NCBI GenBank assembly: GCA_964618365.1 | Contig: CAZUAA010000001.1 | Coordinates: 1 to 48,795 of the forward strand | Direction of reading: 5' to 3' | From: an uncultured Candidatus Saccharibacteria bacterium | Lineage (GTDB): Bacteria; Patescibacteriota; Minisyncoccia; Phycocordibacterales; UBA9973 | DNA: 48,795 bases | Part shown: positions 5,708-48,677 of the stretch, piece by piece | Layout: every line of letters begins with the position of its first letter | How positions within the stretch are numbered: the first letter of the stretch is position 1 | The notes under the pieces: model-generated | Told to the model about the DNA's origin: nothing | The model's input: the letters and a program-made list of their open reading frames with translations, nothing else | Databases searched by the model: none | Program-made: the position numbers and the translations under genes

Positions 5708-6631
5708 ATGTTTATAACCAATCTTAAAAGAATAATAGTTTCTGGTTTTAGAAGTTTTGTGAGAAGTGGATTTACATCACTCGCTGGAGTCTTGGTTATG
5801 ACCATCACTCTTTTTGTTATAACTTCCCAGATCTTTGTCCAAGCAGCACTCAATTCTGCTTTAAATGATATAAAAGAAAAAGTAGATATTACAGTTTATT
5901 TTATTCCCAATGTAGATCAAGATGATATTAAAGAGGTAGAATTTGCATTAAAGGCTTTACCAGAAGTAAAAGATGTCACATACACATCTCAAGACGATGC
6001 ACTTTCTCAGTTTAAAGAAAAGCATTCTAATGATTTCCTTACTATTCAAGCGCTCGAAGAGCTTGGAGAGAATCCACTTGGAGCATCACTCAATGTTAAA
6101 GCCAAAGATCCATCTCAATATGAAAGTATTTCAAAATATTTTGAAGAGAGTGGAGCTTTATCAAATGATAATTTAAATATAATAGACAAGATAGACTATC
6201 ATGATAATAAACTTATAATAGACAAACTTTCATCTATTATTACTAAGGCTGAAAAGCTTGGACTTTTGATTTCTTTTATACTCATTATTATTTCTATAAT
6301 AATTACTTTCAATACGATTAGACTTATTATTTATATGTCCAAAGAAGAGATAAGCGTCATGAGGCTCGTCGGTGCTGGGAGTAGATATATTAGAGGTCCG
6401 TTTATTGTTTCTGGGATGCTTGTAGGTGCGATTTCAGCTATTGTGACAGCTATTATCTTTATCCCTGTTTCTATGTGGCTTGGTAATACGATGACAGATT
6501 TTGTAGGAATGAATATGTTTGATTATTTTAAATCCAATTTTATACAACTCTTCTTAATAATGATTTTATCTGGGATTATTATAGGTGGCATCTCTAGTGT
6601 TTTTGCTATTGCTAGATATTTAAGGAAATAA
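5708..6631 (+). CDS. ftsX: Cell division permease-like protein FtsX
   Basis: One N-terminal TM helix, a large extracytoplasmic loop, then three C-terminal TM helices. It lies directly downstream of ftsE. Confidence 0.8.
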   Translation: MFITNLKRIIVSGFRSFVRSGFTSLAGVLVMTITLFVITSQIFVQAALNSALNDIKEKVDITVYFIPNVDQDDIKEVEFALKALPEVKDVTYTSQDDALSQFKEKHSNDFLTIQALEELGENPLGASLNVKAKDPSQYESISKYFEESGALSNDNLNIIDKIDYHDNKLIIDKLSSIITKAEKLGLLISFILIIISIIITFNTIRLIIYMSKEEISVMRLVGAGSRYIRGPFIVSGMLVGAISAIVTAIIFIPVSMWLGNTMTDFVGMNMFDYFKSNFIQLFLIMILSGIIIGGISSVFAIARYLRK

Positions 6632-6633
6632 TT

Positions 6634-32858: not shown

Positions 32859-34607
32859 ATGGAATCTAAAACACCACAATTTGATGCATTGCTTGATAAA
32901 ATCTTAGAAGAGCTTGTCCCACATAAGCGTACTTGCAAATGGCAAGGAGAGCATAAATATTGTGAAGGGGAATTTGAAATAACAAAAGAAGATATTGAGT
33001 TTTTAAAATTACTTCGAGCTCCTGCACCAAATTATTGTCCGACGTGCAGAAGGATAAGAAGGTTTCCACATCTCACTATTTCTCAATTATTTAAAGTTAA
33101 ATGTAATGCTCCAAACCATACAGAATCCATCATTTCTGTTTTTCCAGAAGAATGTCCAGTTCCTATATATGACTATAAGTATTTTATTGGTGATGAATTT
33201 GATCCATTTTCTTTTGGTAGAGTATATGATAAGAGTTTAAGTCCACTGGGTCAACTTTTGGATTTTAGAAAAAAATTTCCTATGCCATCTTTTCTCAATC
33301 GAAACTCATCGGATATAAATAGTGATTATTCTAATGGCGGACGGGATGTTAAAAATGGTTACTATACTGTTGGTTGTTATCATGTTGAAGATGTTTGGTA
33401 TACCATTCATGCAAATAAGAGTAGAAATATTATGGATTCAAATGCAGTTGGTGAATCAGATTTTATTTATGGATGTGTCTCTTCAGATCATTTATACAAA
33501 TCTTCTTTTATATATTTTTCTAGTAATTGTATTAATTCCAGTTTTCTTTTTGATTGTAAAAATTGCCAAGATTGTTTTGGTTGTGTAAATCTTCGAAATT
33601 CTAAATATTGTGTTTATAATGAGCAGTTGACTAAAGAAGATTATGAAAGTTTTATGGGATCGATAACTCCCTTTTCGAGAGATATACTTAAAGAATGTGA
33701 AGAAAAATTTTGGCAATTAGTGAAGAGTCTTCCTCTTAATGGTCCAAGAATAGTTTCTTCAAATAACACAAATGGTGTTAAGATAATAAATTCTAATAAT
33801 TTATTTGATGTTACAGATTCTATTAGTTCTGAGAATGCACGTCATTCTGATGGGATTCAAACTCATAGAGACTCTATGGACATTCTCTATTCCGGAGGTA
33901 ATTCAAGTCTACTTTATATGAATACAAATATTGGCTCACAGTCTAGTAGAGTTAAATTTTCTATATCTTCTAAGTTTTGTTTAGATTGTGAATTTGTTTT
34001 TAATTCTAAAAATCTCACAAATTGTTTTATGTGTTTTGGACTTCAGAATAAATCATATTGTATTTTAAATAAACAGTACGAAGAATCTGAATATTATAAG
34101 ATTGTTGATGAGATAAAATCTCTTATGCTAAAGAGGGGGGAGTATAGTGATGGTCCTGGATTTGAATTTTCTGCTCAAGCTTATAATTTTTCTATTGGGC
34201 AGATTTTGTATCCACTTACCGATGAAGAGATAGTAAAATTTGGTGGCTATATAGCCAAAGAACCAGAAACAAATGTTGGAAATATGGAAGTATTAGGTAA
34301 AGATCAAATTCCTCAGACAATTAATGAAGTAAATGATGATATTTTAGATAAAGCTATTCGTTGTGAAGTGACTGGCAGGCCGTTTAGAATAATTGCTTCA
34401 GAGTTGGCTTTCTTAAGAAGAATTGGATTACCACTTCCAATTATTCATCCTTCATTGCGTATGTCTGGTCGCTGGAAATTCTCTCCTGTTGGTAAAAAAT
34501 ATAAAGCAGTATGTAAAAAATGCCAAAAAGATATGGAAACTTTATTTGATCCTAATGAAAAATATTTGATGTATTGTGAGAAATGTTATCAACAAGAAGT
34601 GATATAA
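32859..34607 (+). CDS. Cys-rich zinc-ribbon/Cys-ladder paralog 1 (most divergent)
   Basis: It shares with paralogs 2-5 the CPxCRRIRR knuckle, two copies of the motif C(F/I)GC(V)NL..K.YC..N.QY..E(E/D)Y, and the C-terminal YCEKCYQQEV. Several Cys pairs are replaced. Confidence 0.85.
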   Translation: MESKTPQFDALLDKILEELVPHKRTCKWQGEHKYCEGEFEITKEDIEFLKLLRAPAPNYCPTCRRIRRFPHLTISQLFKVKCNAPNHTESIISVFPEECPVPIYDYKYFIGDEFDPFSFGRVYDKSLSPLGQLLDFRKKFPMPSFLNRNSSDINSDYSNGGRDVKNGYYTVGCYHVEDVWYTIHANKSRNIMDSNAVGESDFIYGCVSSDHLYKSSFIYFSSNCINSSFLFDCKNCQDCFGCVNLRNSKYCVYNEQLTKEDYESFMGSITPFSRDILKECEEKFWQLVKSLPLNGPRIVSSNNTNGVKIINSNNLFDVTDSISSENARHSDGIQTHRDSMDILYSGGNSSLLYMNTNIGSQSSRVKFSISSKFCLDCEFVFNSKNLTNCFMCFGLQNKSYCILNKQYEESEYYKIVDEIKSLMLKRGEYSDGPGFEFSAQAYNFSIGQILYPLTDEEIVKFGGYIAKEPETNVGNMEVLGKDQIPQTINEVNDDILDKAIRCEVTGRPFRIIASELAFLRRIGLPLPIIHPSLRMSGRWKFSPVGKKYKAVCKKCQKDMETLFDPNEKYLMYCEKCYQQEVI

Positions 34608-34614
34608 TAACATT

Positions 34615-36291
34615 ATGGAATACAAACCAGAAAATAAAGCGTGTCAAAACTGCAAGAGAGACTTTACTATCGAGCCGGAGGATTTTAATTTTTATGATAA
34701 GATGAATGTTTGTGCTCCGAGTGATTGCCCATCTTGTAGGGCTCAATTGAGATTAAGTTTTCGTAACGAGAGAACTTTTTATAAAAGGCCTTGTGATAAA
34801 TGCGGACAAAACGTTATTTCTATGTACTCACCCAATAAGCCTTTTACTGTTTATTGTTATGATTGTTGGTATTCGGATGATTGGGGTGGGGAGGATTACG
34901 GTATGGAGTATGATCAATCTAGGTCATTTTTAGATCAATATGAAGAGTTATGGAAGAAAGTTCCTAAGGTTGCACTTATATATGTAAATAGTCCAGGGAG
35001 CGAATATACGAACATTTCAGCTGATAATAAAAAATGTTATATGATTGTGGAATCTTCTAATAATGAAAATTCTATTAATTCATACTGGATACAAGAGTGT
35101 CGTGATGTAGTAGATACATCTTTTGCTTCAAAATGTGAACTCACTTATGAGAGTGACGATTGTTACAATTCATATAAGATTTTATATAGTAAGGGCTGTC
35201 ATGATTGCTCTACAAGCTACTTCCTAACAGATTGTAGAGGGTGCTCGGATTGTATTGGATGCATAAATTTAGTAAATAAAACAAATTATATTTTCAATGA
35301 GCCGTATAGTAAAGAAGAATATGAAAAAATAAAAAAGGAGTTACAATTAGATACTTTAGATGGAGTAGAATTATTCAGAGATAAATATCAAGATTTTATT
35401 TTAAATAAACCTAGGAAATTTGGAGAAATTGTAAATGTTTTGAATTCGACTGGAAATTATATAAAGAATGCAAAAAATTGTGTTTCTTGTTTCCATTGTT
35501 ATGAAGCAGAGAATAATAAATACGGGGTCCATATTTGGCGAAATGCAAAGGATACTATGGATTGTGATACTGCCGGAAGAAATGTTTCACTTATTTATAA
35601 TTCAATAAATGCAGGAATTGATAATTCAAATTTTGTCTCTGGTTCTGTATGTTGGACTTGCTCGTTTGTAAATTATTCCACATATTGTTTTAATTCAAAT
35701 TATATTTTTGGATGTGTTGGTTTAAGAAAGAAAAATTATCATATACTTAATCAACCATATTCAAAAGAAGAATATGAAATCATTAGAGAAAAGATTATTA
35801 AAGAATTGAAAGATAATAATTTTTATGGTAATTTCTTTCCTAAAAATCTTTCTTGTTTTGGTTATAATGAGACTCCCGCATATGAGCAATTTCCACTTTC
35901 TAAAGAAGAAGCAATAAGGCAAGGTTTTAAATGGGAAGACACAGAAAGAGGGACATATGGGAAAGAGACAATTAAAAAAGAAGATATGCCACAGAATATA
36001 TCAGAGGTAAATTTTGATGTAAAAAATGAAATTTTTGTTTGTCACAATTGTGATAAAAATTTTAGAGTAATAGAAGATGAATTTCTGTTTTATAAAAAAT
36101 TAAATATTCCATTACCAAAACTTTGTCCAGAATGTAGGCATAATAGAAGAATACAGTCTCGTGGTCCAAACAAACTCTGGCACAGAAAGTGTATGAAAGA
36201 AGGATGTACAAATGAATTTCAAACAAGTTATGCTCCTGATAGACCAGAAATAGTGTATTGTGAAAAATGTTATCAAAATGAGGTATACTAA
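34615..36291 (+). CDS. Cys-rich zinc-ribbon/Cys-ladder paralog 2
   Basis: 36 Cys in 558 aa by my count. N-terminal CQNCKRDFTIEPEDFNFYDK...CPSCR, a second ribbon CDKC...YCYDCW, a duplicated core motif, and C-terminal CHNC...CPECRHNRR...YAPDRPEIVYCEKCYQNEVY. Confidence 0.9.
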   Translation: MEYKPENKACQNCKRDFTIEPEDFNFYDKMNVCAPSDCPSCRAQLRLSFRNERTFYKRPCDKCGQNVISMYSPNKPFTVYCYDCWYSDDWGGEDYGMEYDQSRSFLDQYEELWKKVPKVALIYVNSPGSEYTNISADNKKCYMIVESSNNENSINSYWIQECRDVVDTSFASKCELTYESDDCYNSYKILYSKGCHDCSTSYFLTDCRGCSDCIGCINLVNKTNYIFNEPYSKEEYEKIKKELQLDTLDGVELFRDKYQDFILNKPRKFGEIVNVLNSTGNYIKNAKNCVSCFHCYEAENNKYGVHIWRNAKDTMDCDTAGRNVSLIYNSINAGIDNSNFVSGSVCWTCSFVNYSTYCFNSNYIFGCVGLRKKNYHILNQPYSKEEYEIIREKIIKELKDNNFYGNFFPKNLSCFGYNETPAYEQFPLSKEEAIRQGFKWEDTERGTYGKETIKKEDMPQNISEVNFDVKNEIFVCHNCDKNFRVIEDEFLFYKKLNIPLPKLCPECRHNRRIQSRGPNKLWHRKCMKEGCTNEFQTSYAPDRPEIVYCEKCYQNEVY

Positions 36292-36296
36292 GATAT

Positions 36297-38066
36297 ATGG
36301 GATACCAATCAGAAACAAAACAATGCCAAAACTGCAAGAAAGACTTTACTATCGAGCCGGAGGACTTTAATTTTTATGAGAAAATCAAAGTCCCTGCACC
36401 GACTTGGTGTTCGGAATGTAGATTCCAAAGAAGGTGTACATTTAGAAATGAAAGAAAACTTTTTAGAAATATTGATGCAATATCAAAGAAACCAGTTTTG
36501 TCTTTATATCCCATAGAAGCTGGATTTCCAATTTATGAAGATAATTATTGGTGGAGTGATAATTGGGATCCTTGTGATTACGGAGTTTCTTTTGATCGGT
36601 CAAAACCATTTCTTTTGCAATTATATGAATTGAGCAAAAGAGTTCCTTTTATGCGCTCTGATGCCGTGAGAATGGTGAGAAGTGAATACTCTGCAAATGC
36701 AGCTGATCTTAAAGATTGTTATCTTATATTTAATTCTTCTGGTACAGAAAATTCTGCCTACGGAAACGCTGTAGATTATTGCAAAAATGTATTTGATAAT
36801 TCTCACATACAATCATCCGAAAAATGTTATGAATCTTTTTGGTTAAATAAATGTTACGACACCCATTTTTCTTCTTTATGTGAGGATTGTGTTTCTCTTT
36901 GGTTCTGTAAAAACTGTCAAGGATGTATGAACTGTTTCGGGTGTGTAAATCTACGCAATAAATCATATTGTGTTTTTAATGAGCAGTATAGCAAAGAAGA
37001 GTATCTGGAAAAATTAAAATCATTTGATTTTAATAAAAATAGTAATTTAGATAATTTTAAAAAAGAAATAAAAAATTTTTGGTTAAATTTTCCTAATAAA
37101 TATTCACAAGGAATTAGAAATAGTGCTTGCAGTGGGGAATATATTTCTAACTCCAAAAATGTAAAAAATAGTTATCTTATAAGAGAAGGTCAAGACTTGA
37201 AATATGTTCAGTATGGACTAGTCCCTAGCCTAAGAGATTGTATGGATTTATCAGTTAGTGGTAATAATAGTGAGCTTATATATGAAAGTGTCACTTCTGG
37301 CTGGAATTCATCTAATATGAAATTCTGTATGGAATGTTGGGATGGGGGTTCTGATTTTGAGTATAGTATTTTTTGTGGCAAAAAAGCAAATCATGTATTT
37401 GGTGGGGTGGGAATAAAAAGTGGAGAATATGTTATTTTAAATAAACAATATTCTAAAGAAGAATTTTATAAATTGAAAGAAGAAATTATACAGCATATGA
37501 ATGATATGCCCTATATTGATAAGGTTGGTAGGGTGTATAAATATGGAGAATTTTTTCCACCAGAATTTTCACCATTTGCTTATAATGATACTGTCACTAA
37601 GGAACATTTTCCATTGAGTAAAGAAGAGATTTTAGAATATGGTGCTAATTGGTATGAAGTTCCTAAGTCAGAATATGATATAACCATAAATACAAAAGAT
37701 TTACCGGATGATATAAATGATATCCAAGATAATATTTTAGACGAGGTCATTTTATGTGTAGATTGTAGTCGTGCTTATAAAATCATACAAACTGAACTTC
37801 AATTTTTGAGACAAAATAATATCGCATTACCGAGATCTTGCATTAATTGCAGACATGATAAAAGAATTTCTCAAAGAAATAGAAATAAACTTTATAAAAG
37901 GACTTGTGATTGTAATGGAGAATATTCAAATAATGGTAAATATAAAAATGAGGTAATTCATGATCATAAAAATAATTCATGTACAAACGAATTTGAAACA
38001 AGTTACGCCCCCGATAGACCAGAAATAGTGTATTGTGAAAAATGTTATCAAAATGAGGTATACTAA
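36297..38066 (+). CDS. Cys-rich zinc-ribbon/Cys-ladder paralog 3 (partly degenerate ligands)
   Basis: Same architecture as the other paralogs. The second N-terminal ribbon and the second core motif have lost their cysteines (ANHVFGGVGIKSGEYVILNKQYSKEEF). Confidence 0.9.
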   Translation: MGYQSETKQCQNCKKDFTIEPEDFNFYEKIKVPAPTWCSECRFQRRCTFRNERKLFRNIDAISKKPVLSLYPIEAGFPIYEDNYWWSDNWDPCDYGVSFDRSKPFLLQLYELSKRVPFMRSDAVRMVRSEYSANAADLKDCYLIFNSSGTENSAYGNAVDYCKNVFDNSHIQSSEKCYESFWLNKCYDTHFSSLCEDCVSLWFCKNCQGCMNCFGCVNLRNKSYCVFNEQYSKEEYLEKLKSFDFNKNSNLDNFKKEIKNFWLNFPNKYSQGIRNSACSGEYISNSKNVKNSYLIREGQDLKYVQYGLVPSLRDCMDLSVSGNNSELIYESVTSGWNSSNMKFCMECWDGGSDFEYSIFCGKKANHVFGGVGIKSGEYVILNKQYSKEEFYKLKEEIIQHMNDMPYIDKVGRVYKYGEFFPPEFSPFAYNDTVTKEHFPLSKEEILEYGANWYEVPKSEYDITINTKDLPDDINDIQDNILDEVILCVDCSRAYKIIQTELQFLRQNNIALPRSCINCRHDKRISQRNRNKLYKRTCDCNGEYSNNGKYKNEVIHDHKNNSCTNEFETSYAPDRPEIVYCEKCYQNEVY

Positions 38067-38071
38067 GATAT

Positions 38072-39745
38072 ATGGGATACCAATCAGAAACAAAACAATG
38101 CCAAAACTGCAAGAAAGATTTCGTTATAGAATCCGAGGATTTTAATTTTTATGAGAAAATAAAAGTCCCAGCACCAACATTTTGTCCGGAGTGTCGACTA
38201 CAAAGAAGATTATCTTATAGAAATGATTATATTTTTTATAATAGAAGATGTGATTTATGTGATAGAAATATAATTTCTATATATTCACCTGATAACCCTC
38301 AGATTATTTATTGTAATAAATGCTGGTGGAGTGATAAATGGGACCCAAAAAGTTATGCTCAAGATTTTGATTTTTCAAGGCCATTTTTTGAACAATTTCA
38401 AGAATTTCGTGTTAGAATCCCAGCTCTAGCATTGTTTAATGATAACAATATTGGAAGTGAGAATTGTGAGTACACTCAAGATTTAGCTTTTTCAAAAAAT
38501 TGTTATATGTGTATGGTGATGTGGAAAATTCAAGGGTGTATGTATTCTAGTTACGGGGCTGATACTAAAGATACTGTAGATTCAATGGGGATTTTTGGGA
38601 CAGGAGAAGGATTGTATGAAGTTATGTATAGTGAAAAATGTTATGGATGTAGATATGTATATAAATCTACATCATTAATTAATTGCTCTTACTGTTACAA
38701 TTGTAATGATTGCGAAGATTGCTTTATGTGTGTAAATTTGAGGGGTAAAAAATATTTTTTTAAAAATAAACAATATTCAAAAGAAGAATATAAGAAAATA
38801 TTAAGTGATTATAACCTTGATTCTTGGAGTGGAAACAATAAGGCAGAAAAAGAATTTAATGAATTTTTGTTGTCTCAGCCTTTAAAATATGCAATTTTGA
38901 AAAATTGTGTGAGTTGCACAGGGGAAAATATTACCAATAGTAAAAATTCAAAATACAATTTTCACTTACGCCGCTCAGAAAATTCAAAATTTTTAGAAAA
39001 TGGAGATACTCAAAAAGATAGTTATGATTTATGCGTTGGAGGAGAGCTCTCAGAATGTTATGAAGGATTAACACCTGATCATTCAAATAAATCACTTTTT
39101 TCTATTTATACATGGAAGTGCATGAATATTGAATATTCAGAATCATGTCAAAGTTCAAATAATTGTTTTGGTTGTGTCGCTTTAAAACATGGGAGATATT
39201 CAATTTTTAATAAAGAATATTCAAAAGAAGAATATGAATTATTAAAAGAAAAAATAATTAATCACATGAAAGATAATAATGAGTATGGTGAATTTTTCCC
39301 AATGAAGGATTCTCCTTTTGCTTACAATGAGTCAATGGCGATGTTCTCATTTCCACTTTCTAAAGAAGATATCCTTCTTAAAAAATTAAAATGGCAAAAT
39401 AATATCCAAGAGACTAGAGGAAAGACCACCTTATTTGATATTCCAGATAAAATTGAAAATGTATCAGATGTTATTGTTGATGAAATTTTAGAGTGTACTA
39501 AATGTCAAAGGAATTACAAGATAACACTAGACGAGCTTTCTTTTTATCGAAAATGGGGAATACCCATACCGAGATTATGTTTCTTTTGCAGACTTAGAAA
39601 TCGTTTTGAAAAAAGAGGTCCTTCTAAACTCTGGCATAGAAAGTGTATGAAAGAAGGATGTAATAATGAATTTGAAACAAGTTACGCCCCTGATAGATCA
39701 GAGATAGTTTATTGTGAAAAATGTTACCAAAATGAGGTATACTAA
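38072..39745 (+). CDS. Cys-rich zinc-ribbon/Cys-ladder paralog 4
   Basis: Same architecture. The first 16 codons are identical at the DNA level to paralog 3 (the shared 106-nt junction ends inside codon 16). Confidence 0.9.
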   Translation: MGYQSETKQCQNCKKDFVIESEDFNFYEKIKVPAPTFCPECRLQRRLSYRNDYIFYNRRCDLCDRNIISIYSPDNPQIIYCNKCWWSDKWDPKSYAQDFDFSRPFFEQFQEFRVRIPALALFNDNNIGSENCEYTQDLAFSKNCYMCMVMWKIQGCMYSSYGADTKDTVDSMGIFGTGEGLYEVMYSEKCYGCRYVYKSTSLINCSYCYNCNDCEDCFMCVNLRGKKYFFKNKQYSKEEYKKILSDYNLDSWSGNNKAEKEFNEFLLSQPLKYAILKNCVSCTGENITNSKNSKYNFHLRRSENSKFLENGDTQKDSYDLCVGGELSECYEGLTPDHSNKSLFSIYTWKCMNIEYSESCQSSNNCFGCVALKHGRYSIFNKEYSKEEYELLKEKIINHMKDNNEYGEFFPMKDSPFAYNESMAMFSFPLSKEDILLKKLKWQNNIQETRGKTTLFDIPDKIENVSDVIVDEILECTKCQRNYKITLDELSFYRKWGIPIPRLCFFCRLRNRFEKRGPSKLWHRKCMKEGCNNEFETSYAPDRSEIVYCEKCYQNEVY

Positions 39746-39750
39746 TATAT

Positions 39751-41460
39751 ATGGAACACCAATCAGAAGCAAAACAATGTCAAAACTGTAAGAAAGACTT
39801 TACTATCGAGCATGAGGATTTTAATTTTTATGAAAAGATTAAAGTTCTACCGCCAACATTTTGTCCACATTGTAGACTTATAAGGAGAATTACTTTTGGA
39901 AACTATTATAATTTTTACAAAAGAGATTGTGATGCTTGTGGTAAAAATGTTATTTGTATTTATTCAAAAGAAGGAGGGTCAAAAATGTATTGTAATAATT
40001 GTTGGTGGGCGGATAATTGGGATGGAACGGAGTATGGGGTAGATTATGATGAAAATAAATATTTTTTTGAACAATTAATTTCATTAAGAAAAGGTACTCC
40101 TTTTATGGCTTTTGAAGCATTATATCCTTCACTAATAAATACACTATATACAAATCATGCTTCATATCAGAAAAATTGTTTTATGACCATAATGGCTGAT
40201 TACAATGAGAATTGTGCATATTCGACTCTTATTACAAATAGTAAAGATTCAATGGATTGTTATGGAATAAATGAATCAGAGTTGTGTTATGAATGTGTAG
40301 GTATATTTAAATCCTATAATTGTTCTTGGAGTGAAGAAATATCTAATTGTGTAGATTGTCATTTTTGCCAATCTTGTGTCGGTTGTTCCAATTGTTTAGG
40401 TTGTGTAAATTTGAAAAATAGAAGTTATTGCATCTTTAATGAGCAATATTCTAAAGAAGAATATAATAATATTTTAAAAGAATTAAATTTAGAAAACTTT
40501 AATAATTTAATGGCTTTTAATAAAAAAGTTCTAGATTTTTGGATTAAAAACCCAAAAAGATATTATCGAGGTGATAGTTTCAATACTAATGTAACTGGAG
40601 ATTATATTTATGAATCTAAAAATGCGAAAGATTCATATTTGGCAGTTGGCCTTGAAGACTGTAAGTATACACAATTTATAACCTTAAAATCATCAAAAGA
40701 TTGTTTTGATTATACTAGTTGGGGCCATGGAGCTGAGCTTATTTATGAAAGTTATATTACTGGGGAAGGTTCTTATAATATTAAATTTAGCACTGAATGT
40801 TGGCCAAACTCTAGAGATATTGAATATTCTTATTATTGTATAAATTGCAAAGATTGTTTTGGGTGCGTGAATTTAAAGAAAAAACAATATTGTATTTTAA
40901 ATAAACAATATACAAAAGAGGAATATTTTATTTTAAAAGAAAAAATTATTAATGATATGAAAAATAATCCTTGGAAAAATAAAGCAGGACATATTTATAC
41001 TTACGGTGAATTCTTACCACCAGAATTATCTGCTTTTAGTTATCAAGAAAGTATTTCAAACGAATATAATACATTAGAAAAAGAAGAAGCTATTAAAAGT
41101 GGTTTTAATTGGGTTGATATAGCATCAAAAGAATATAGTATAACTCTTGATAATAAAAATCTTCCCCTAACAATATCTGAAATAAATAAAAGTATAAAAG
41201 ATGAAGTAATTGAATGCGAGTCTTGTCATAGGGGATACAATATAAGTAATTTAGAATTTGAATTATTAAATAAATTAAAACAGCCTATTCCACATCAGTG
41301 TTCAAATTGTAGACACAAAAGAAGATTTAGTAGGACAAACAAGCCTATATTTTATGATCGTGTTTGCAATAAATGTGGTGAAAAAATAAGAACCTCATAT
41401 GCCCCTGATAGACCCGAGATAGTTTATTGTGAAAAGTGTTATCAGCAGGAAGTGTATTAA
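39751..41460 (+). CDS. Cys-rich zinc-ribbon/Cys-ladder paralog 5
   Basis: Same architecture, with both core motifs intact (CSNCLGCVNLKNRSYCIFNEQYSKEEY and CKDCFGCVNLKKKQYCILNKQYTKEEY). A strong terminator follows. Confidence 0.9.
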   Translation: MEHQSEAKQCQNCKKDFTIEHEDFNFYEKIKVLPPTFCPHCRLIRRITFGNYYNFYKRDCDACGKNVICIYSKEGGSKMYCNNCWWADNWDGTEYGVDYDENKYFFEQLISLRKGTPFMAFEALYPSLINTLYTNHASYQKNCFMTIMADYNENCAYSTLITNSKDSMDCYGINESELCYECVGIFKSYNCSWSEEISNCVDCHFCQSCVGCSNCLGCVNLKNRSYCIFNEQYSKEEYNNILKELNLENFNNLMAFNKKVLDFWIKNPKRYYRGDSFNTNVTGDYIYESKNAKDSYLAVGLEDCKYTQFITLKSSKDCFDYTSWGHGAELIYESYITGEGSYNIKFSTECWPNSRDIEYSYYCINCKDCFGCVNLKKKQYCILNKQYTKEEYFILKEKIINDMKNNPWKNKAGHIYTYGEFLPPELSAFSYQESISNEYNTLEKEEAIKSGFNWVDIASKEYSITLDNKNLPLTISEINKSIKDEVIECESCHRGYNISNLEFELLNKLKQPIPHQCSNCRHKRRFSRTNKPIFYDRVCNKCGEKIRTSYAPDRPEIVYCEKCYQQEVY

Positions 41461-41549: not shown

Positions 41550-42203
41550 ATGGAAATCAAAAATAATTTAAACAAAGAGGAGATCGCAGATTATGTGGCT
41601 TCAGTTATAAATAAAAAATTAAAAGAAGGGAAAAAGGTTTTGTTTTTTGTTTGTGGAGGGTCATCATTAGAAACAGAAGTTTTGGTTTCTCAAAAACTTG
41701 AAAACTTTAATGAAGATAATTTGACCATAACACTTTCAGATGAAAGATGGGGAGAAGTGGGACACAAAGATTCAAACTGGGAAAAACTTAAAAATTTAGG
41801 TTTTAATTTTGAGAATAAAAAACTTATATCATTTTTAATTGGTAAAAGTGTAGAAGAAACAAAATCTTATTTAGAGAATGAACTACGTGATGTTATTTCA
41901 AAAGCAGATTACAAGGTGGCTTTTATGGGTATGGGAAGTGATGGGCATACAGGGGGCATACTGCCTAAAAGTCCGGCTGTTTTTGAAGATGGGCTATTAT
42001 GCTATTATGATGGAGGGGTTTTTGAGAGATTTACCACAACATTTAAAATTTTGGAAAATCTAGATGAAGCATTTCTTTATGTTTTTGGTAGTGATAAATG
42101 GGCAATGGTAGAAAATTTAAATAAAGATATAGATAAGGAAGAAATGCCCGCTCAAATTTTAAAAAAGGTCAAACAATTAACAATTTTTACAGACTATAAA
42201 TAA
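41550..42203 (+). CDS. pgl: 6-phosphogluconolactonase
   Basis: Contains VCGGSS, LSDERWG and MGMGSDGHTGGILP (SugarP isomerase/Pgl family). It lies upstream of gnd and zwf. Confidence 0.8.
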   Translation: MEIKNNLNKEEIADYVASVINKKLKEGKKVLFFVCGGSSLETEVLVSQKLENFNEDNLTITLSDERWGEVGHKDSNWEKLKNLGFNFENKKLISFLIGKSVEETKSYLENELRDVISKADYKVAFMGMGSDGHTGGILPKSPAVFEDGLLCYYDGGVFERFTTTFKILENLDEAFLYVFGSDKWAMVENLNKDIDKEEMPAQILKKVKQLTIFTDYK

Positions 42204-42204
42204 A

Positions 42205-43110
42205 ATGAAAATTATTATATCAGGTTTGGGGAGGATGGGTTCACAAATTGCGAAGAAGCTCCACGAAGGTTCTCATACAGTTATTGCTCATAATAGAGGT
42301 AAAGAAAAAGTTGATATACATAAAGAATTGGGGATGGTGGGAGCTTATACTAAAGAAGAAACTTTAGGAAATTTTGGTGTTGATGAAAAAGTCGTCCTTT
42401 GGATGATGATACCTCACGAGACTGTAGATGATGAGATGAAAGAATGGACGAAAATATTACCAAAAGAAAGTATCATTATAGATGGTGGAAATTCTAGATT
42501 TGTGGATACAAAAAGGAGGAGTGAAGAACTAATAAATTTAGGATTTAAATTTGTAGATATTGGTACTAGTGGAGGAGTCTGGGGTTACCAAAATGGATTC
42601 TCTATGATGATAGGGGGAGATGATGGGTCTGTAGAATATATAAAGCCTATGCTTGAAACCCTGAAAAGTCCTACAGGTATGTATGCTTATTTTGGTGAGA
42701 GTGGAGCAGGACATTATGTAAAAATGGTACACAATGCTATAGAATACGGGATGATGGAGTCACTCGCTGAGGGGTATAGACTTCTTAAAGAAGGACCATA
42801 CAAGAATTTGGATTTGTATAAAGCCGGTGATGTATGGCAACACAGAAGTGTGATAACTTCTTGGCTCAATGAGCTTACAAGAGATGCACTTAAAGAAAAT
42901 CCTAATCAAGAAGGTGTGAATGGAACTGTCTCTGAATCAGGGGAAGCAAGGTGGGCACTTGAAGTCGCTAAAGAATATGATATAGAGACACCAGCCATCT
43001 CTTCTTCTTTTGATGTGCGGATAGAATCACAAAAAGGTAAAATTAATTTTGCCACCAAATTACTAGCTTCTATGAGAAATGCTTTCGGTGGGCATAAAAT
43101 AAATGAATAA
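42205..43110 (+). CDS. gnd: 6-phosphogluconate dehydrogenase (decarboxylating), short form
   Basis: Contains GLGRMGSQIA (Rossmann), DGGNSRF, GTSGGVWG and GAGHYVKMVHNAIEYGMM. Confidence 0.85.
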   Translation: MKIIISGLGRMGSQIAKKLHEGSHTVIAHNRGKEKVDIHKELGMVGAYTKEETLGNFGVDEKVVLWMMIPHETVDDEMKEWTKILPKESIIIDGGNSRFVDTKRRSEELINLGFKFVDIGTSGGVWGYQNGFSMMIGGDDGSVEYIKPMLETLKSPTGMYAYFGESGAGHYVKMVHNAIEYGMMESLAEGYRLLKEGPYKNLDLYKAGDVWQHRSVITSWLNELTRDALKENPNQEGVNGTVSESGEARWALEVAKEYDIETPAISSSFDVRIESQKGKINFATKLLASMRNAFGGHKINE

Positions 43111-44437
43111 TCTAAGACCAACAATATTGATAATAGTAGGTATAACTGGGGATTTATCTACCAGGAAGCTTTTACCAGCACTTGCTGAAATATCTAAAAA
43201 TGAAAAACTACCAGATCAGTTTCGGATAGTTGGGGTCACTAGGCAGAGCAATTTCAATAAAGGTAAATTGTGTAAAAACGAAGACGATGAAAAGATACTC
43301 AAAGAAAAGATAGATATTTTCGAAATGGATTTAAATGAAATTAAAAATTATTTATCTTTAAAAAAGTTTTTATTTGATTTGGGGGAAAAATATGGTTTAG
43401 ATAATCCACAATATTTATTTTATCTTTCTGTTCCACCTCTTGCTTCTTCAAAAATTATAGAACTTATTGGTAAGTCAGGACTTGCGAGTGATAATTCTAA
43501 ATTACTTTTAGAAAAGCCTTTTGGGGTGGATTATGATTCGGCATCTTTGATGCTTTCTCATATAGATAAATATTTAGATGAAGATAATGTGTATCGTATA
43601 GACCATTATCTTGCGAAGGAAACGGTGCAAAATTTGCTAGTTTTTCGTGAGGGTAATTCTCTTTTTAAAAAGACCTGGAATAAAGATTTTATTGAAAGTA
43701 TAGAGATAAATGTGAGTGAAAGTATCGGTATTGAGGGGCGGGCAAACTTTTATGAGCAGACGGGTGCACTTCGTGACCTTATCCAAAGTCATTTGCTTGG
43801 ACTTCTTTCTCTTACACTTATAAACCTAGATAAAGATTATAGTGTCTCTGATATTTCGGACCTCAGATATAAAGCTTTAAAGAAAATTAAAGTTTTAAAG
43901 AATAAAAATAAGATTGTATCTCTTAGAGGTCAGTATGAAGGATATAAAGAAGAAGTTAAAAATGAAAAAAGTAATGTAGAAACTTTTGCATCTATCTCAC
44001 TTTCATCAAGTGATAAGAATTGGAAGGGGGTATCTATTAAGCTTTCTACAGGTAAAGCTTTAAAAGAAAAATATACAGAAATAAGAATTTTATATAAAAA
44101 AGTTCGCGATCATGAATCCAATGAATTACTCTTTAGACTTGAGCCAAACGAAGGTATATCTTTTTCTTTGCTTACAAAAAAGCCAGGATATGATCATGAT
44201 GTGGCAAGACATACACTTGAATTTAATTTCAAGAATCATTACGAATCGTTACCAAAAGCTTATGAACAGGTGATATATAGTGCTATACAGGGTAATCATA
44301 AATTCTTTACATCTGGGAAGGAAGTCTTGGAAACTTGGAGGATTGTCGGGCAGATACAAAAGAATTGGAAAAATTCTGATGATAAAGATTTGGTAATTTA
44401 TAAAAAGGGTAGCGAGATAGAAGAAATAATAAATTAG
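43103..44437 (+). CDS. zwf: Glucose-6-phosphate dehydrogenase
   Basis: Contains GITGDLSTRKLLPAL, EKPFG and RIDHYLAKETVQN. It overlaps gnd by 8 nt. Confidence 0.9.
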   Translation: MNNLRPTILIIVGITGDLSTRKLLPALAEISKNEKLPDQFRIVGVTRQSNFNKGKLCKNEDDEKILKEKIDIFEMDLNEIKNYLSLKKFLFDLGEKYGLDNPQYLFYLSVPPLASSKIIELIGKSGLASDNSKLLLEKPFGVDYDSASLMLSHIDKYLDEDNVYRIDHYLAKETVQNLLVFREGNSLFKKTWNKDFIESIEINVSESIGIEGRANFYEQTGALRDLIQSHLLGLLSLTLINLDKDYSVSDISDLRYKALKKIKVLKNKNKIVSLRGQYEGYKEEVKNEKSNVETFASISLSSSDKNWKGVSIKLSTGKALKEKYTEIRILYKKVRDHESNELLFRLEPNEGISFSLLTKKPGYDHDVARHTLEFNFKNHYESLPKAYEQVIYSAIQGNHKFFTSGKEVLETWRIVGQIQKNWKNSDDKDLVIYKKGSEIEEIIN

Positions 44438-44534: not shown

Positions 44535-44660
44535 ATGGCAAAAAGAGCTACATCATTACATCCTCATGTAAAATCTAGACACTCAAAGAAGACAAAGAAA
44601 AGATTGGCAATAAAGAAGGTAATGTTAGAAAATAAAAAAAGTAAAAAGAAATCAAAATAA
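44535..44660 (+). CDS. Candidate 41-aa lysine-rich basic peptide (not in the ORF track)
   Basis: Translation: MAKRATSLHPHVKSRHSKKTKKRLAIKKVMLENKKSKKKSK. A hairpin terminator follows directly. No SD is present. Confidence 0.3.
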   Translation: MAKRATSLHPHVKSRHSKKTKKRLAIKKVMLENKKSKKKSK

Positions 44661-44664
44661 TTTT

Positions 44665-44688: not shown

Positions 44689-44721
44689 AAAATTGTAAGT
44701 ATAAAAAGATTTAGAGTAGAT

Positions 44722-44920
44722 AAAAAAAGACCCAGGAGAATAGAATGTTAATTCTATTTTTATCCCGGGCCTTACGTAATTATGGCAGTTCTTCTGCCAT
44801 TTGTGCGACTCCTTGGTACCTAATGGTGTCGCTATCGTTTGGCCGGCTAATTTATCTGCGGTGCCGACCATTTTCTCTCGCCTAATGCCTGTATTTATTG
44901 TGGCGAGTTTTTTTTAATTT
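44722..44920 (-). ncRNA. Candidate ~200-nt small RNA of unknown class
   Basis: It is bounded by a perfect consensus promoter (44927-44955) and a minus-strand intrinsic terminator (stem 44731-44779, U-run 44722-44728). The interior forms four GC-rich local hairpins and is far more GC-rich than its surroundings. Confidence 0.55.
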
Positions 44921-44926
44921 AATTAT

Positions 44927-44955
44927 ATTATATACCTTTATGTGATTTTTGTCAA
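44927..44955 (-). promoter_or_regulatory. Consensus sigma-70 promoter: TTGACA, 17-nt spacer, TATAAT
   Basis: The minus strand reads TTGACAaaaatcacataaaggtaTATAAT, with the -35 box at 44950-44955 and the -10 box at 44927-44932. Confidence 0.75.
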
Positions 44956-44989
44956 GTATTTTGCAATATATTAAATTAGTGTTATTATT

Positions 44990-45176
44990 TAAGGGTGTGA
45001 TCGAGGTTATCAGCCTTTGCCTTATTTATAAGGCTAGCACTGGGAAGAAAATCGAAAGATGAGTAGAACCCTATAAATGAGTTCCGCTTTGCGGAAGAAA
45101 AAAGGTGGTACCACGGGCTTAGAAACTCGTCCTTATATAACAATCTATTGGATTGCTATATGTGGACGAGTTTTTT
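44990..45176 (+). promoter_or_regulatory. T-box riboswitch leader, Ile specifier (AUC)
   Basis: Stem I has the specifier-loop context gaaaAUCgaaag (ATC at 45051-45053) and an AGTA box (atgagtag). The T-box sequence is aaaaaGGTGGTACCACGGG. A long terminator follows: ctcgtcc...ggacgag plus T6 (45126-45176). Confidence 0.85.
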
Positions 45177-45200: not shown

Positions 45201-48200
45201 ATGAATGAAGAAATAAAATCACAAAGGGCACAGAATGAAGAAAAAATTTTAGAATTTTGGAAAGAAAATAATATATTCCAAAAAAGTTTGGAAAAGGATT
45301 CGCCAAAAGGGGAATATGTTTTCTATGATGGACCACCTTTTGCTACTGGGCTACCTCACTATGGTCATATTCTTGGAAGTACCGTTAAAGATGTTATTGG
45401 TAGATATAAGACCATGAGTGGTTTTAATGTTCCTCGTCGTTGGGGGTGGGATTGTCACGGTTTACCAATTGAAAATATAGTTGAAAAAGATTTAGGTATT
45501 TCAGGGAAGAAAGCGATTGAAGAACTTGGAATTGCTAAATTTACCGAACATGCTCGTAGTAAGGTTTTGACTTATGTTGGTGAATGGAAAAAGACAATCG
45601 ATCGCATGGGGCGTTGGGTAGATTTCGACAATTCATATAAAACTATGGATAACACTTTTATTGAAAGTGTTTGGTGGGCACTTGGTGAGATGAACAATAA
45701 AGGATTACTCTATGAAGGTGTTAGAGTTCTTGCTTATTGTCCACGATGCGAGACTCCAATTGCAAATTCTGAAATAGCTATGGACAATAGTTATAAAGAT
45801 ATAACTGATATTTCAGTATATGTAAAATTTAAAATTCTTAATGAGGATTATCCTAATACATATCTATTGGCTTGGACGACAACCCCTTGGACTCTTCCAG
45901 GGAATACAGCAATTGCTATTCATAAAGACATTATTTATTCAGCAGTCAGAGTCAAAGGAATTGAAGAGCTTCTTATTGTTGCGAAAGAAAGTATCTTAAA
46001 TGTTTTTAAAGATAAAGAAATTGAGATAATTCATGGTGATATTAAAGGATCTGATTTAGTCGGTCTTTCTTATGAGCCAATATTTAATTACTATAAAAAT
46101 TTAGATATACCAAATAAAGAGAATATTTGGAAAGTTTGGCATGCAGATTTTGTGACATTGGATAAAGGGACAGGAATTGCTCATGAGGCTCCAGCCTTTG
46201 GTGAGGATGATATGAATCTTGCGAAAATAAATAATATTCCATTTATTCGTCACGTTGAGCCGAATGGAGATTTTTCAAAAGAAGTAATAGATTTCCCAAA
46301 TATAAAAGTAAAACCAAAAGAAGACCATCAATCGACAGATATTCTTATTATTAAGTACCTTGCTCATACGGGTAGTCTATTTGCTAAAGAAAAAATTATT
46401 CACTCGTATCCGCATTGTTATCGTTGTGAGACTCCACTTTTGTATTATGCTCTTCCTTCTTGGTTTATAAATATTCAAAAAGTTAAGAATGACTTATTGA
46501 AAAAAGGTGAAGATATGAATTGGATTCCTAGTCACCTAAAAGATGGACGATTTAAGAATACCATGGAATCTGCTCCTGATTGGACAATTTCTAGAAATCG
46601 ATATTGGGCAAGTCCACTACCTATATGGAAAAACAAAGATGGTAAAGTTATGATGGTAAATTCTGTTGAGGATTTAAAATATAAAACCAAAAAATCTGGG
46701 AATAAATATTTTGTTATGCGACATGGTGAGACAGAGTGTAATGTTAGAGGGGAGGTTAGTTCTACTGTAAACAATGATGATAATCTAACAAGTAAAGGGG
46801 TTGAACAGGTTTTAAAATCTGCAGATGAATTAAAAAATAAAAATATTGACCACATCATAACTTCTCCTTTTGTGAGAACCCGAGAAACAGCAGAATTATT
46901 GGCCGAAAAAATTGGATATGATAAAGAAAAAATTATTTATGATGATAGGCTTCATGAAATGTCTGTACCTATGTATGAAGGAAAGAAATGGAAAGAATAT
47001 CATGATGCTTATGCTAAAACTGTAGAGAATTTTTACAAAGCACCCGAAGGTAATGAGTCGTATGAAGATGTGCGACGCAGGTCAATGAGTTTTTTGTATG
47101 AAATAGAAAAAGAATATTCTGGTAAAAATATTTTGATTGTTACTCACGGAAGCCCTGTTTGGCAAATGTTTTCGGAAGTCAATGGATTAAGTACTGAAGA
47201 ATCATTAGGAATAGTTAAAACAGAAATGAGTTTTAACTATTTAGGAAATGGTGAATTTGTAGAATTACCTTTTGTTCCATTACCACATAATGCTGAATAT
47301 AAATTTGATTTACATAGGCCTTATATAGACAATATTGTTCTTGTGGATGAAAAAGGTGATGAATATAAAAGAATTCCAGAAGTTATTGATTGCTGGTTTG
47401 AATCAGGTTCAATGCCTTTTGCTCAAGATCACTTCCCATTTGAAAATAAAGATTGGCAAAAAAATAATTTCCCTGCAGGTTTTGTGGCTGAATACATAGC
47501 TCAAACAAGGACCTGGTTTTATTATACTCATGCAATTTCCACGATTCTTTTTGGAAATGCTCCGTTTGAAAACGTTGTTACTACGGGGACTGTTTTGGCT
47601 GAAGACGGAAGTAAAATGTCAAAATCAAAGAATAATTATCCAGATCCTTGGAAGTTGTTTAATAAATATGGAGTTGATGCGCTTCGTTTTTATCTCATAT
47701 CTAGTACTTTAATGAAAGGTGAAGATGTAAATTTTTCTGAAAAATTAGTACAAGAAGTTTCAAGCAAAATCATAAATAGATTTGATAATGTTGTTTCATT
47801 TTATGAATTATATAGAAATAAAGATATAGAAGCTGAAGAATATAGAGTTTCTGGTAATATTTTAGATAAATGGATAATTACTAGATTAAATCAATTAAAG
47901 ATAGAGGTAAAAAATGGGATGGAATTATATGATTTATCTTTAGCTACAAAACCTTTTGATTTATTTATAGAAGATCTTTCTACTTGGTATTTACGTCGAT
48001 CTCGAGATGTATTAAAGGATGGGAATAGGGATTCTTTGTATACTCTTTATTTTGTGATAAAAACAACAGTCCAACTTTTTGCACCTTTTATGCCTTTTAT
48101 TGCTGAAGAGATTTGGAAAAAGATTAAATTAGATTCTGATCCTAATAGTGTTCATTTAAGTAATTTCTTTTTAGATCTTAAAATAGAAGATATAAATATT

Positions 48201-48677
48201 AGTATTATTAATGAAATGAAAGAAGTAAGAGAGATTGTGACTCTTGGACTTCAGGCAAGACAAAAAGTAGGAATACCAGTTAGACAGCCACTTGGAAGAT
48301 TATTAATTACTAATTATCAATTACCAGTTGAATATGAGGAGATAGTAAAAGATGAATTAAATGTTAAAGAAATAAAAATAATTGATGATGGAGAAAAAAA
48401 TATAAAACTAGACACTGAAATTACTCCAGAACTTAAAGAAGAGGGGAATTATCGTGAACTGGTACGTGCAATACAAGATATGAGAAAGAAAATGGGGCTT
48501 AATCCAAATGATGTGGTGAACCTAGAGATAGAAACTGGAGTAGAAGGGCAGAAAATAATAAATAGATTTGAAAAAGAATTTGAAAAGGCAGTAAGTGCTA
48601 AGGTGTCTATACAAGAAAATGGAGGAGAGCAAATAAAAATAAGTGATTTATTGTTTATTGTAAATTTGGTAAAATAG
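45201..48677 (+). CDS. ileS: Isoleucine--tRNA ligase with an inserted histidine-phosphatase (PGM-like) domain
   Basis: Contains HIGH (PHYGHILG), KMSKS, the editing-domain motif WTTTPWTLP and CWFESGSMPF. Residues ~500-700 carry RHGETECN, TSPFVRTRETA and VTHGS. Confidence 0.95.
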   Translation: MNEEIKSQRAQNEEKILEFWKENNIFQKSLEKDSPKGEYVFYDGPPFATGLPHYGHILGSTVKDVIGRYKTMSGFNVPRRWGWDCHGLPIENIVEKDLGISGKKAIEELGIAKFTEHARSKVLTYVGEWKKTIDRMGRWVDFDNSYKTMDNTFIESVWWALGEMNNKGLLYEGVRVLAYCPRCETPIANSEIAMDNSYKDITDISVYVKFKILNEDYPNTYLLAWTTTPWTLPGNTAIAIHKDIIYSAVRVKGIEELLIVAKESILNVFKDKEIEIIHGDIKGSDLVGLSYEPIFNYYKNLDIPNKENIWKVWHADFVTLDKGTGIAHEAPAFGEDDMNLAKINNIPFIRHVEPNGDFSKEVIDFPNIKVKPKEDHQSTDILIIKYLAHTGSLFAKEKIIHSYPHCYRCETPLLYYALPSWFINIQKVKNDLLKKGEDMNWIPSHLKDGRFKNTMESAPDWTISRNRYWASPLPIWKNKDGKVMMVNSVEDLKYKTKKSGNKYFVMRHGETECNVRGEVSSTVNNDDNLTSKGVEQVLKSADELKNKNIDHIITSPFVRTRETAELLAEKIGYDKEKIIYDDRLHEMSVPMYEGKKWKEYHDAYAKTVENFYKAPEGNESYEDVRRRSMSFLYEIEKEYSGKNILIVTHGSPVWQMFSEVNGLSTEESLGIVKTEMSFNYLGNGEFVELPFVPLPHNAEYKFDLHRPYIDNIVLVDEKGDEYKRIPEVIDCWFESGSMPFAQDHFPFENKDWQKNNFPAGFVAEYIAQTRTWFYYTHAISTILFGNAPFENVVTTGTVLAEDGSKMSKSKNNYPDPWKLFNKYGVDALRFYLISSTLMKGEDVNFSEKLVQEVSSKIINRFDNVVSFYELYRNKDIEAEEYRVSGNILDKWIITRLNQLKIEVKNGMELYDLSLATKPFDLFIEDLSTWYLRRSRDVLKDGNRDSLYTLYFVIKTTVQLFAPFMPFIAEEIWKKIKLDSDPNSVHLSNFFLDLKIEDINISIINEMKEVREIVTLGLQARQKVGIPVRQPLGRLLITNYQLPVEYEEIVKDELNVKEIKIIDDGEKNIKLDTEITPELKEEGNYRELVRAIQDMRKKMGLNPNDVVNLEIETGVEGQKIINRFEKEFEKAVSAKVSIQENGGEQIKISDLLFIVNLVK

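Follow-up and report, generated by a model that had tools for sequence, protein, structure and literature searches.

What is a complete histidine phosphatase doing inside an isoleucyl-tRNA synthetase (IleRS)? This question is raised by a 48,795-nucleotide stretch of contig CAZUAA010000001.1 (assembly GCA_964618365.1, deposited as an uncultured Candidatus Saccharibacteria bacterium), hereafter the window, in which an earlier note made from the letters of the DNA had described a histidine phosphatase domain embedded in the product of the ileS gene. Few enzymes are as conserved as the aminoacyl-tRNA synthetases, and a second, unrelated and apparently active enzyme within the core of an essential synthetase is unusual. 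We show that a complete histidine phosphatase is spliced in frame into the tip of the CP3 subdomain, originally a Zn-knuckle hairpin, of a T-box-regulated IleRS, and we weigh what the phosphatase may do at this site.

A phosphatase domain nested in the CP3 subdomain of IleRS

The segment flagged by the earlier note (46698–47303) lies within the single uninterrupted open reading frame (ORF) of ileS and is translated in frame as GNKYFVMRHGETECN...TSPFVRTRETA...LHEMSVPMYEG...LIVTHGSP...PHNAEYK. Against the IleS equivalog TIGR00392 of NCBIfam the ileS product scores 844.2 bits (cut-off 621.4) in two stretches split by the insert, and its Pfam architecture consists of tRNA-synt_1 in two stretches, His_Phos_1, Anticodon_1 and DUF5915. 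The closest solved IleRS is IleRS2 of P. megaterium (8c8v, 734 bits); further solved enzymes are those of yeast (7d5c, 669 bits), T. thermophilus (1ile, 624 bits) and, as a type-1 representative, S. aureus (1ffy, 294 bits). The synthetase motifs proved to be intact on both sides of the insert, with the HYGH version of the HIGH signature, the editing peptides, KMSKS and the anticodon-binding domain all present, and the CWFESGSMP motif (aa 731–739) forming the opening of the second half of the Rossmann fold. In an alignment of 62 close homologues, His53, Tyr54 and Gly55 are invariant, His56 is conserved in at least 90% of the sequences, and the residues of WTTTPWT, GTGIAHEAP and KMSKS are invariant or nearly so. 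The gene is thus predicted to encode a canonical type-2 IleRS that is closer to the IleRS2 or eukaryote-like enzymes than to IleRS1. Its predicted specificity for the aminoacylation of tRNA-Ile receives indirect support from a conserved upstream T-box leader with an AUC specifier.

Alignment to the solved type-1 and type-2 enzymes delimits the insert. In the best match, 8c8v, query residues 6–479 align with chain residues 7–460 and query residues 696–1070 with chain residues 480–859, so that ~216 residues are found here in place of ~20, close to the 200 or so that had been claimed. The short and sometimes Zn-binding peptide that other IleRS enzymes were said to carry at this place is the CP3 subdomain. 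In published domain maps, CP3 is the connection between CP2 and the second Rossmann half; the Candida, Thermus and Staphylococcus enzymes differ in the topology of CP3, with a Zn-binding motif in Thermus (PMC7191050, PMC7955072), and it is structurally the most variable subdomain of IleRS (PMC7191050). The yeast CP2–3 linker, ARDWNVSRNRYWG, is part of the lining of the pocket that takes up the tRNA 3′ end and reveromycin (PMC7955072), and the matching peptide of the window protein is APDWTISRNRYWA. Of 56 distant full-length representatives, 21 have CxxC...CxC knuckles on both sides of the phosphatase; of 120 close homologues, none does. The presence of flanking knuckles in several relatives indicates that the Zn hairpin of CP3 was the site of insertion and that the lineage of the window lost the cysteines later.

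Family, fold and catalytic residues of the nested domain

A search of the full protein with the Pfam profile PF00300 (His_Phos_1) matched residues 504–668 (nt 46710–47204; E 7.8e-36, 124 bits), and the insert alone covered profile positions 2–166 of 194 with E 2.8e-37 and 128.7 bits, far above the gathering score of 21.7. The insert is thus a predicted branch-1 histidine phosphatase (PF00300). The branch-1 signatures follow one another in the order that the earlier note had given, with the RHG motif exactly where it had been placed and with the second arginine, the acidic glutamate and the second histidine all found, so that the domain is complete (Table 1). Among 369 unique complete nested copies, which share an overall identity of only ~30–40%, Arg507, His508, Ser555, Arg559 and His649 are 100% conserved, and position 586 is Glu in 96.5% and Asp in 2.7%; in the 62 close homologues Arg507, His508, Gly509, Ser555, Arg559, Glu586 and His649 are invariant. 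The same 62 homologues have a mean pairwise identity of 42% in the insert, compared with 82–84% in the catalytic halves and 52–69% in the other domains of the synthetase. The insert is therefore the least conserved region of the protein and diverges at roughly double the rate of the synthetase core.

An AlphaFold 2 model of the insert alone reached a pLDDT of 94.3 and a pTM of 0.91, and the insert kept a pLDDT of 83–95 within the model of the full-length protein, which itself (pTM 0.46, with a pLDDT of 30–50 in the Rossmann core) is too poor to judge the orientation of the phosphatase active site. The best Foldseek matches in the Protein Data Bank (PDB) were the phosphoserine phosphatase PspA, the mycobacterial glucosyl-3-phosphoglycerate phosphatase GpgP, PhoE, TIGAR, a riboflavin-pathway histidine phosphatase (HFP) and the alpha-ribazole phosphatase CobC, with TM scores of 0.70–0.74; those to PspA, PhoE and GpgP had a probability of 1.00, the top ones with TM scores of ~0.72. 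A sequence search of the PDB agreed, returning small-metabolite phosphatases with PspA as the best solved relative. Among the NCBIfam families, no curated equivalog cut-off was reached by the insert: the best match was the short archaeal dPGM family NF038349 (dPGM_arch; 101.5 bits, cut-off 225), and scores were also below the cut-off for pgm_1 (TIGR01258; 27.2 against 81.7), PspA (NF045917; 65.4 against 350), CobC (TIGR03162; 91.8 against 162.9) and PRK07238 (92 against 326). According to the model, the resemblance to PspA and CobC is one of fold only. In a comparison with the E. coli GpmA sequence, the dPGM-specific insertion with its Arg-Arg pair, the E-R-H-Y motif and the Asn of H-G-N were not found; position 651 is Gly, Asp, Ile or Ser, and residues 587–589 are not R-H-Y. 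The canonical dPGM reaction is therefore unlikely for the nested domain. Retention of the catalytic set despite fast divergence, together with the fold and the scores below every cut-off, argues for a PhoE/PspA-like phosphomonoesterase that forms a subfamily of its own, is under purifying selection and is apparently active, that is, catalytically competent by prediction, rather than a canonical mutase. Its chemistry would apparently be that of a phosphomonoesterase (or mutase) acting through a phosphohistidine intermediate.

Table 1 Features of the ileS locus and their positions in the window.
Feature	Position	Strand	Remarks
ileS T-box leader	44952..45176	+	reduced stem I; specifier-like AUC-A near 45009-45012; core GGTGGTACCACG at 45104
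Intrinsic terminator of the ileS leader		+	CTCGTCC...GGACGAGTTTTTT, 3′ of the T-box core
ileS	45201..48677	+	single uninterrupted ORF, 1158 aa; predicted type-2 (IleRS2-like) isoleucyl-tRNA synthetase with nested phosphatase
HIGH signature	45357..45368	+	HYGH, aa 53-56; first half of Rossmann fold
CP1 editing-domain core	45873..46193	+	Thr-rich WTTTPWT, aa 225-231, and GTGIAHEAP, aa 323-331
CP2-CP3 linker	46578..46607	+	DWTISRNRYW, aa 460-469
CP3-nested segment	46638..47285	+	aa ~480-695; no counterpart in solved IleRS structures; gap in the 8c8v alignment
RHG motif	46719..46727	+	R507, putative nucleophile H508, G509
Second phosphate-binding Arg	46875..46877	+	R559 (SPFVRTRETA)
Putative proton donor	46956..46958	+	E586 (LHEMSV)
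Second catalytic His	47145..47147	+	H649 (VTHGS)
Return into IleRS	47307..47417	+	DLHRPYID, aa 703-710 (C-terminal CP3 strand), and CWFESGSMP, aa 731-739
KMSKS signature	47613..47627	+	aa 805-809
Anticodon-binding domain and C-terminal DUF5915	47865..48653	+	aa 889-1031 (PF08264, E 5e-29) and aa 1043-1151 (PF19302, E 7e-15)

Distribution and authenticity of the nested arrangement

PF00300 was detected in all 120 of the closest full-length homologues (62–85% identity, 1144–1232 aa), and, when one genome of each GTDB species was scanned, at least 147 proved to encode the whole junction, consisting of the insert and both flanks. The survey of related candidate phyla radiation genomes that the earlier note had proposed thus shows the insert to be shared, and it agrees with a source of the window within that radiation (Patescibacteria). 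Of the 147 genomes, 80 were retrieved (loci L001–L080); they are Paceibacteria-type metagenome-assembled genomes (MAGs) assigned to Nomura-, Zambryskii- and Taylorbacteria and to 'Paceibacterota'. Each of these 80 independently assembled loci contains a continuous ileS ORF of ~1150–1210 aa with the phosphatase domain. The base composition is homogeneous along the window gene, with a G+C content of 0.32 in the insert and of 0.33 and 0.29 in the rest of the gene and with likewise matching G+C at third codon positions. No sign of a frameshift or of an assembly chimera, either of which had been raised as a possible cause of the arrangement, was seen in these loci or in the base composition. A HMMER search of 1.84 billion cluster representatives returned 197 clusters (50% identity) at E ≤ 1e-30, nearly all of them spanning the full junction, and one matching cluster includes the Peregrinibacteria IleRS KKP39778.1, indicating that the trait extends past the Paceibacteria. 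We conclude that nesting of the phosphatase in IleRS is ancient and widespread among the Patescibacteria. Saccharibacteria is the depositors' generic label on many of these Paceibacteria-type MAGs.

An exact look-up of the window protein returned no identical record. Proteins of this architecture have been in the databases since 2015, when they entered with the GW2011 genomes (KKP84483.1; UniRef100_A0A0G0DUT0, named only 'isoleucine--tRNA ligase'), and hundreds of MAG proteins with the same architecture are annotated just as IleRS or as 'class I tRNA ligase family protein'. As a consequence of this annotation, the phosphatase is invisible to metabolic reconstructions of the Patescibacteria.

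One protein, P0028, was considered as a free-standing close relative of the nested domain and was rejected, as it is a fragment of an ileS gene broken by frameshifts on a long-read contig (L081); no genuine stand-alone progenitor has thus been identified. On this contig, the phosphatase-bearing ileS (937–6869) is split into four ORFs, probably by frameshift errors, and adjoins a Cas1 gene and an IS605 OrfB-like gene.

Variants of the nested domain in related synthetases

In a family of valyl-tRNA synthetases (ValRS) of the Patescibacteria, a domain of this kind is placed in the ValRS CP3, between its two CxxC knuckles. Carriers make up ~35 of the clusters listed, from Colwell-, Sungii- and Parcubacteria (for example P0041, P0385, P0388 and P0394), and ValRS proteins without the insert also occur (P0387, P0390 and P0391). 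P0385 and P0041, which have both the domain and the knuckles, are >90% identical in both flanks to P0387, which has neither, indicating that the whole CP3 module turns over on short time-scales by recent gain or loss. A hidden Markov model (HMM) of the IleRS insert scored the ValRS-nested domains at 137–163 bits and free-living PspA at 114 bits; since the former scores are only modestly above the latter, a single common origin of the nested domains is not claimed.

The number and the position of the phosphatase copies also vary. Four copies are found in the ValRS-like P0295, one in the CP2 region and three in tandem in CP3, and two, likewise in tandem, in P0376; P0303 combines a CP3 copy with another ahead of the anticodon-binding domain. 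The catalytic residues are kept in every copy of these three proteins.

In two relatives the phosphatase is accompanied by other enzyme-like domains. P0307 (L082, 4001–8188) is a complete IleRS of 1395 aa encoded on an 11.6-kb contig, in which the CP3 phosphatase is joined by a P-loop kinase-like domain placed after CWFESGSMP. This domain (GACGAGKTT) is zeta-toxin-like, with matches to AAA_18 (32.6 bits) and AAA_33 (27.5 bits), and has weak similarity to APS kinases, shikimate kinases and Pnkp1. The IleRS-like P0302 (L083, 4001–7201) has three extra domains. A RAYT/IS200-type tyrosine-transposase-like domain lies in frame within its editing domain; the second is the CP3 phosphatase; and the third, a GNAT domain, follows the HFPFEN loop and shares its loop with the kinase-like domain of P0307. 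The ORF of P0302 ends after the GNAT domain and neither KMSKS nor an anticodon part follows, so that this gene may be degenerate or split. The presence of kinase-like and GNAT inserts in a nearby loop of relatives indicates that these loops accept cargo domains. NCBIfam holds a separate curated family of IleRS with a GNAT domain (NF040702), the cut-off of which was reached by none of these proteins.

The T-box leader of ileS

The T-box family RF00230 matched the region upstream of ileS at 44952–45137 over the full span of the model, with 35.1 bits (E 2e-6) against a gathering score of 93. Stem I is strongly shortened, with 7 nt in place of 85 RF00230 model positions. A terminator hairpin and a U-run come after the T-box core AAGGUGGUACCACG. 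The exact core (also given as GGUGGUACCACG) is found 48 times in 934 kb overall, and 43 of 73 related loci have it in the 500 nt upstream of ileS; loci with the leader include L001, L004, L007, L009, L012, L013, L015 and L017. In an alignment of 17 leaders, ATCA (the AUC-A specifier), GGGAAGAA, AGTAG, the T-box core and the terminator are conserved, AUC-A being invariant in 16 of the 17. Although its score is below the Rfam gathering score, the leader has the tRNA-pairing core, the overlapping terminator and the matching Ile specifier of a T-box, and we assign it as such on these sequence features. The conservation of this Ile T-box suggests that the gene would be regulated as a genuine IleRS gene by uncharged tRNA-Ile, and that the phosphatase would be co-regulated with it. 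Full-text literature searches returned nothing relevant on T-box leaders in Patescibacteria.

Possible functions of the nested phosphatase

The earlier note had suggested that the substrate may be a nucleotide, a tRNA-linked phosphate or a metabolite; the closest relatives of the domain all act on small metabolites. The reading that we favour, with about even confidence, is that the insert is an autonomous small-molecule phosphomonoesterase of the PhoE/PspA type carried on a permissive surface loop of CP3. It is suggested by the metabolite phosphatases among its relatives, by the autonomous fold in the model, by the variable site and copy number, and by the other cargo enzymes found in neighbouring loops. 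The site of the domain differs between the CP3 of IleRS, the CP3 of ValRS, the CP2 region and the position ahead of the anticodon domain, which speaks for tethering and against an exact geometry relative to the synthetic site. In the mechanism that we propose, the phosphatase would fold as a globule of its own on the permissive loop and would hydrolyse a small phosphomonoester through a phospho-His508 intermediate, with Arg507 and Arg559 binding the phosphate, Glu586 protonating the leaving group and His649 assisting. The synthetase would work independently of it and charge tRNA-Ile as usual, so that nesting would create no new step in aminoacylation and would instead give the phosphatase, in a very small genome, the expression level, the stability and the inheritance that come with an essential gene. 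Several observations weigh against such an autonomous phosphatase. CP3 starts ~10 residues past the linker of the tRNA 3′-end pocket, which makes action in cis geometrically conceivable, and the domain recurs, sometimes in multiple copies, specifically in IleRS and ValRS, both class Ia synthetases that edit, which could mean a link to tRNA or to aminoacylation, although this restriction is partly one of ascertainment because the searches were seeded from these synthetases. Control by a T-box that senses Ile-tRNA would moreover be unexpected for a metabolic phosphatase with a housekeeping role.

A functional coupling to the synthetase is favoured by the proximity of CP3 to the tRNA 3′-end pocket, the restriction to Ile and Val enzymes so far, the tandem copies and the co-regulation through the T-box. 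In one form of coupling, the target of the phosphatase in cis would be tRNA or the aminoacylation cycle: it might, for instance, make damaged tRNA-Ile or tRNA-Val chargeable by removing a terminal 3′(2′)-phosphate, or it might dephosphorylate a nucleotide product (AMP) or a by-product at the synthetase. The insert sits in CP3, which comes straight after the CP2–3 linker that forms part of the pocket, ValRS has this domain at the corresponding point, the T-box ties expression to uncharged tRNA-Ile, and the kinase-like domain of P0307, with its weak matches to Pnkp1, zeta-toxin and AAA_33, recalls RNA-healing enzymes that combine a kinase with a phosphatase. However, small metabolites are the substrates of all close structural and sequence relatives, no precedent of a histidine phosphatase in RNA-end repair was found in the searchable literature, and the varying position and copy number of the domain are ill-suited to a fixed geometry. 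The charge of the insert is uninformative because its predicted isoelectric point is acidic in the clade of the window (median 5.6) but neutral to basic in distant relatives. We consider action in cis unlikely on balance. A somewhat more doubtful version is that the phosphatase is coupled to the synthetase either in cis on tRNA, by removing a blocking 3′(2′)-phosphate from tRNA-Ile or tRNA-Val, or on the enzyme itself, by removing a phosphoryl group placed there by a kinase toxin; if this were true, the class Ia synthetases of the Patescibacteria would be self-repairing or toxin-resistant charging enzymes, and the relatives with kinase-like and GNAT domains would be further variations of an 'armed' synthetase. 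More doubtful again is a regulatory module, namely a protein (Ser/Thr/His) phosphatase that undoes an inhibitory phosphorylation of the synthetase, as would be placed by kinases of the HipA type that act on GltX or TrpS, or a sensor that tunes IleRS to a phosphometabolite. Branch 1 does include protein phosphatases such as SixA, PGAM5 and Sts-1, SixA has a weak N-terminal match to the insert (E 2e-10), and a permanent tether to the presumed target, with several copies per chain, would be in keeping with a substrate that is a macromolecule or the chain itself. The SixA match is nevertheless limited to the shared N-terminal core (40.7 bits against a cut-off of 74.5), metabolite phosphatases are the best matches, no kinase or toxin gene is conserved beside ileS, where the conserved neighbour is argS, and PADLOC defence models gave no match.

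Phosphoglycerate mutase has been remarked upon as undetected in some Parcubacteria clades (Jaffe et al., PMC7304191), and this prompts the idea that the nested domain replaces a missing enzyme of core metabolism, either that mutase or a phosphoserine phosphatase. The best NCBIfam match to dPGM_arch and the position of PspA as the best solved relative would fit such a role, but the cut-offs of dPGM_arch, pgm_1, PspA and CobC were all left unreached, the dPGM determinants are absent by comparison with the E. coli GpmA sequence, and control by a tRNA-Ile T-box would be strange for glycolysis, so that a replacement of this kind appears very improbable. The least credible explanation is that the insert is catalytically irrelevant, serving as a brace for the lost Zn knuckle of CP3 or persisting as neutral baggage, or that it is an artefact of assembly or frameshift. 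The loss of the four knuckle cysteines in the clade of the window, contrasting with the two knuckles kept in some distant relatives, and the fast evolution of the insert would fit this explanation. Yet the catalytic residues are 96.5–100% conserved over copies that have otherwise diverged widely, the base composition is homogeneous, and the continuous ORFs in independent assemblies, with the junction found in species after species, refute the artefact; an inert brace or an artefact is effectively excluded.

Comparison with known systems and significance

The window protein has the same order of domains and motifs as the type-2 IleRS structures 8c8v and 1ile (T. thermophilus), namely the two Rossmann halves with HIGH and KMSKS, the CP core with CxxC pairs, CP1, CP2, CP3, the anticodon-binding domain and the C-terminal domain, and the Zn-binding motif of the T. 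thermophilus CP3 is still found around the insert in some of its relatives. Unlike in 8c8v, the extra residues of the window protein form an unrelated enzyme domain. With the branch-1 enzymes of the PhoE/PspA/GpgP type (1h2e, 4ij5, 4pz9 and 6s2q), the insert shares the predicted fold, the length of ~200 aa, the R-H...R...E...H set and an E-x3-G-x3-G-K type motif, but it is only 21–27% identical to them. These enzymes are free-standing, whereas the insert is nested in another enzyme and has the return strand of CP3 in place of a C-terminal tail.

Two known fusions come closest in kind. The NF040702 family, 'isoleucine--tRNA ligase, N-acetyltransferase domain-containing', is a curated precedent for an IleRS with an unrelated enzyme domain and may be compared with the GNAT domain of P0302; however, its cargo and apparently also its site differ, and the window protein, which matches through its IleRS part only, stays at 337 bits where the cut-off is 1999. 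The bifunctional RNase H/acid phosphatase (PRK07238, the Rv2228c type) joins a PhoE/CobC-like phosphatase, to which the insert has its match, to a nucleic-acid enzyme, but the fusion there is end to end rather than nested and the partner enzyme differs.

Synthetases tolerate domains that are inserted into or appended to surface loops of the catalytic core, and the known ones serve in editing, tRNA binding and complex assembly. Examples include the INS editing insertion of bacterial ProRS and the GST, WHEP and EMAPII domains of eukaryotic enzymes. We know of no report of a phosphomonoesterase as an accessory domain of an aminoacyl-tRNA synthetase. Full-text literature searches found no paper on IleRS or any other aminoacyl-tRNA synthetase with a histidine phosphatase, and none on IleRS with a GNAT domain, the NF040702 family included. 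The suggestion of the earlier note that the fusion had not been described thus stands for the searchable literature and falls for the databases, where the architecture has long been deposited. While synthetases with accessory domains are known, a nested, catalytically conserved phosphatase with ValRS, multi-copy, kinase-like and GNAT variants is new and is unrecognised in databases. It has long been retained over a large bacterial radiation and is echoed in these other versions. If the phosphatase is only cargo, it would illustrate how ultra-small genomes pack functions into essential genes, and CP3 would offer engineers a natural site for the insertion of domains; a coupling to tRNA or to the synthetase would instead add a new activity to the aminoacylation cycle.

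Gene neighbourhood of ileS

The gene immediately upstream of ileS is argS in 61 of the related loci. In the window, argS lies at 30841–32553 and is separated from ileS by five paralogous genes and by an oxidative pentose-phosphate cluster, pgl-gnd-zwf (41550–44437), that encodes 6-phosphogluconolactonase, 6PGDH and G6PD and is found in none of the 80 related loci. No second histidine phosphatase ORF is present in the window, nor within 6 kb of ileS in any related locus. The gene neighbourhood gives no hint of the function of the phosphatase, argS being the only conserved neighbour.

The five paralogous ORFs lie in tandem on the forward strand (32859–41460) and encode proteins of 557–589 aa, in which the sole Pfam match is a weak one to a C-terminal treble-clef zinc finger (PF23477); single homologues are located between argS and ileS in ~11 related loci. 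Downstream of the pentose-phosphate cluster, a very basic 41-aa ORF on the forward strand (44537–44662; MAKRATSLHPHVKSRHSKKTKKRLAIKKVMLENKKSKKKSK) is followed by a terminator-like hairpin. The adjacent intergenic segment at 44700–44920, likewise on the forward strand, is rich in G+C in a genome of 32% G+C, has no match to an Rfam family and no homologue among 83 loci, folds much more stably than shuffled sequences do (z score -4.6), and ends in a terminator-like hairpin and a U-run.

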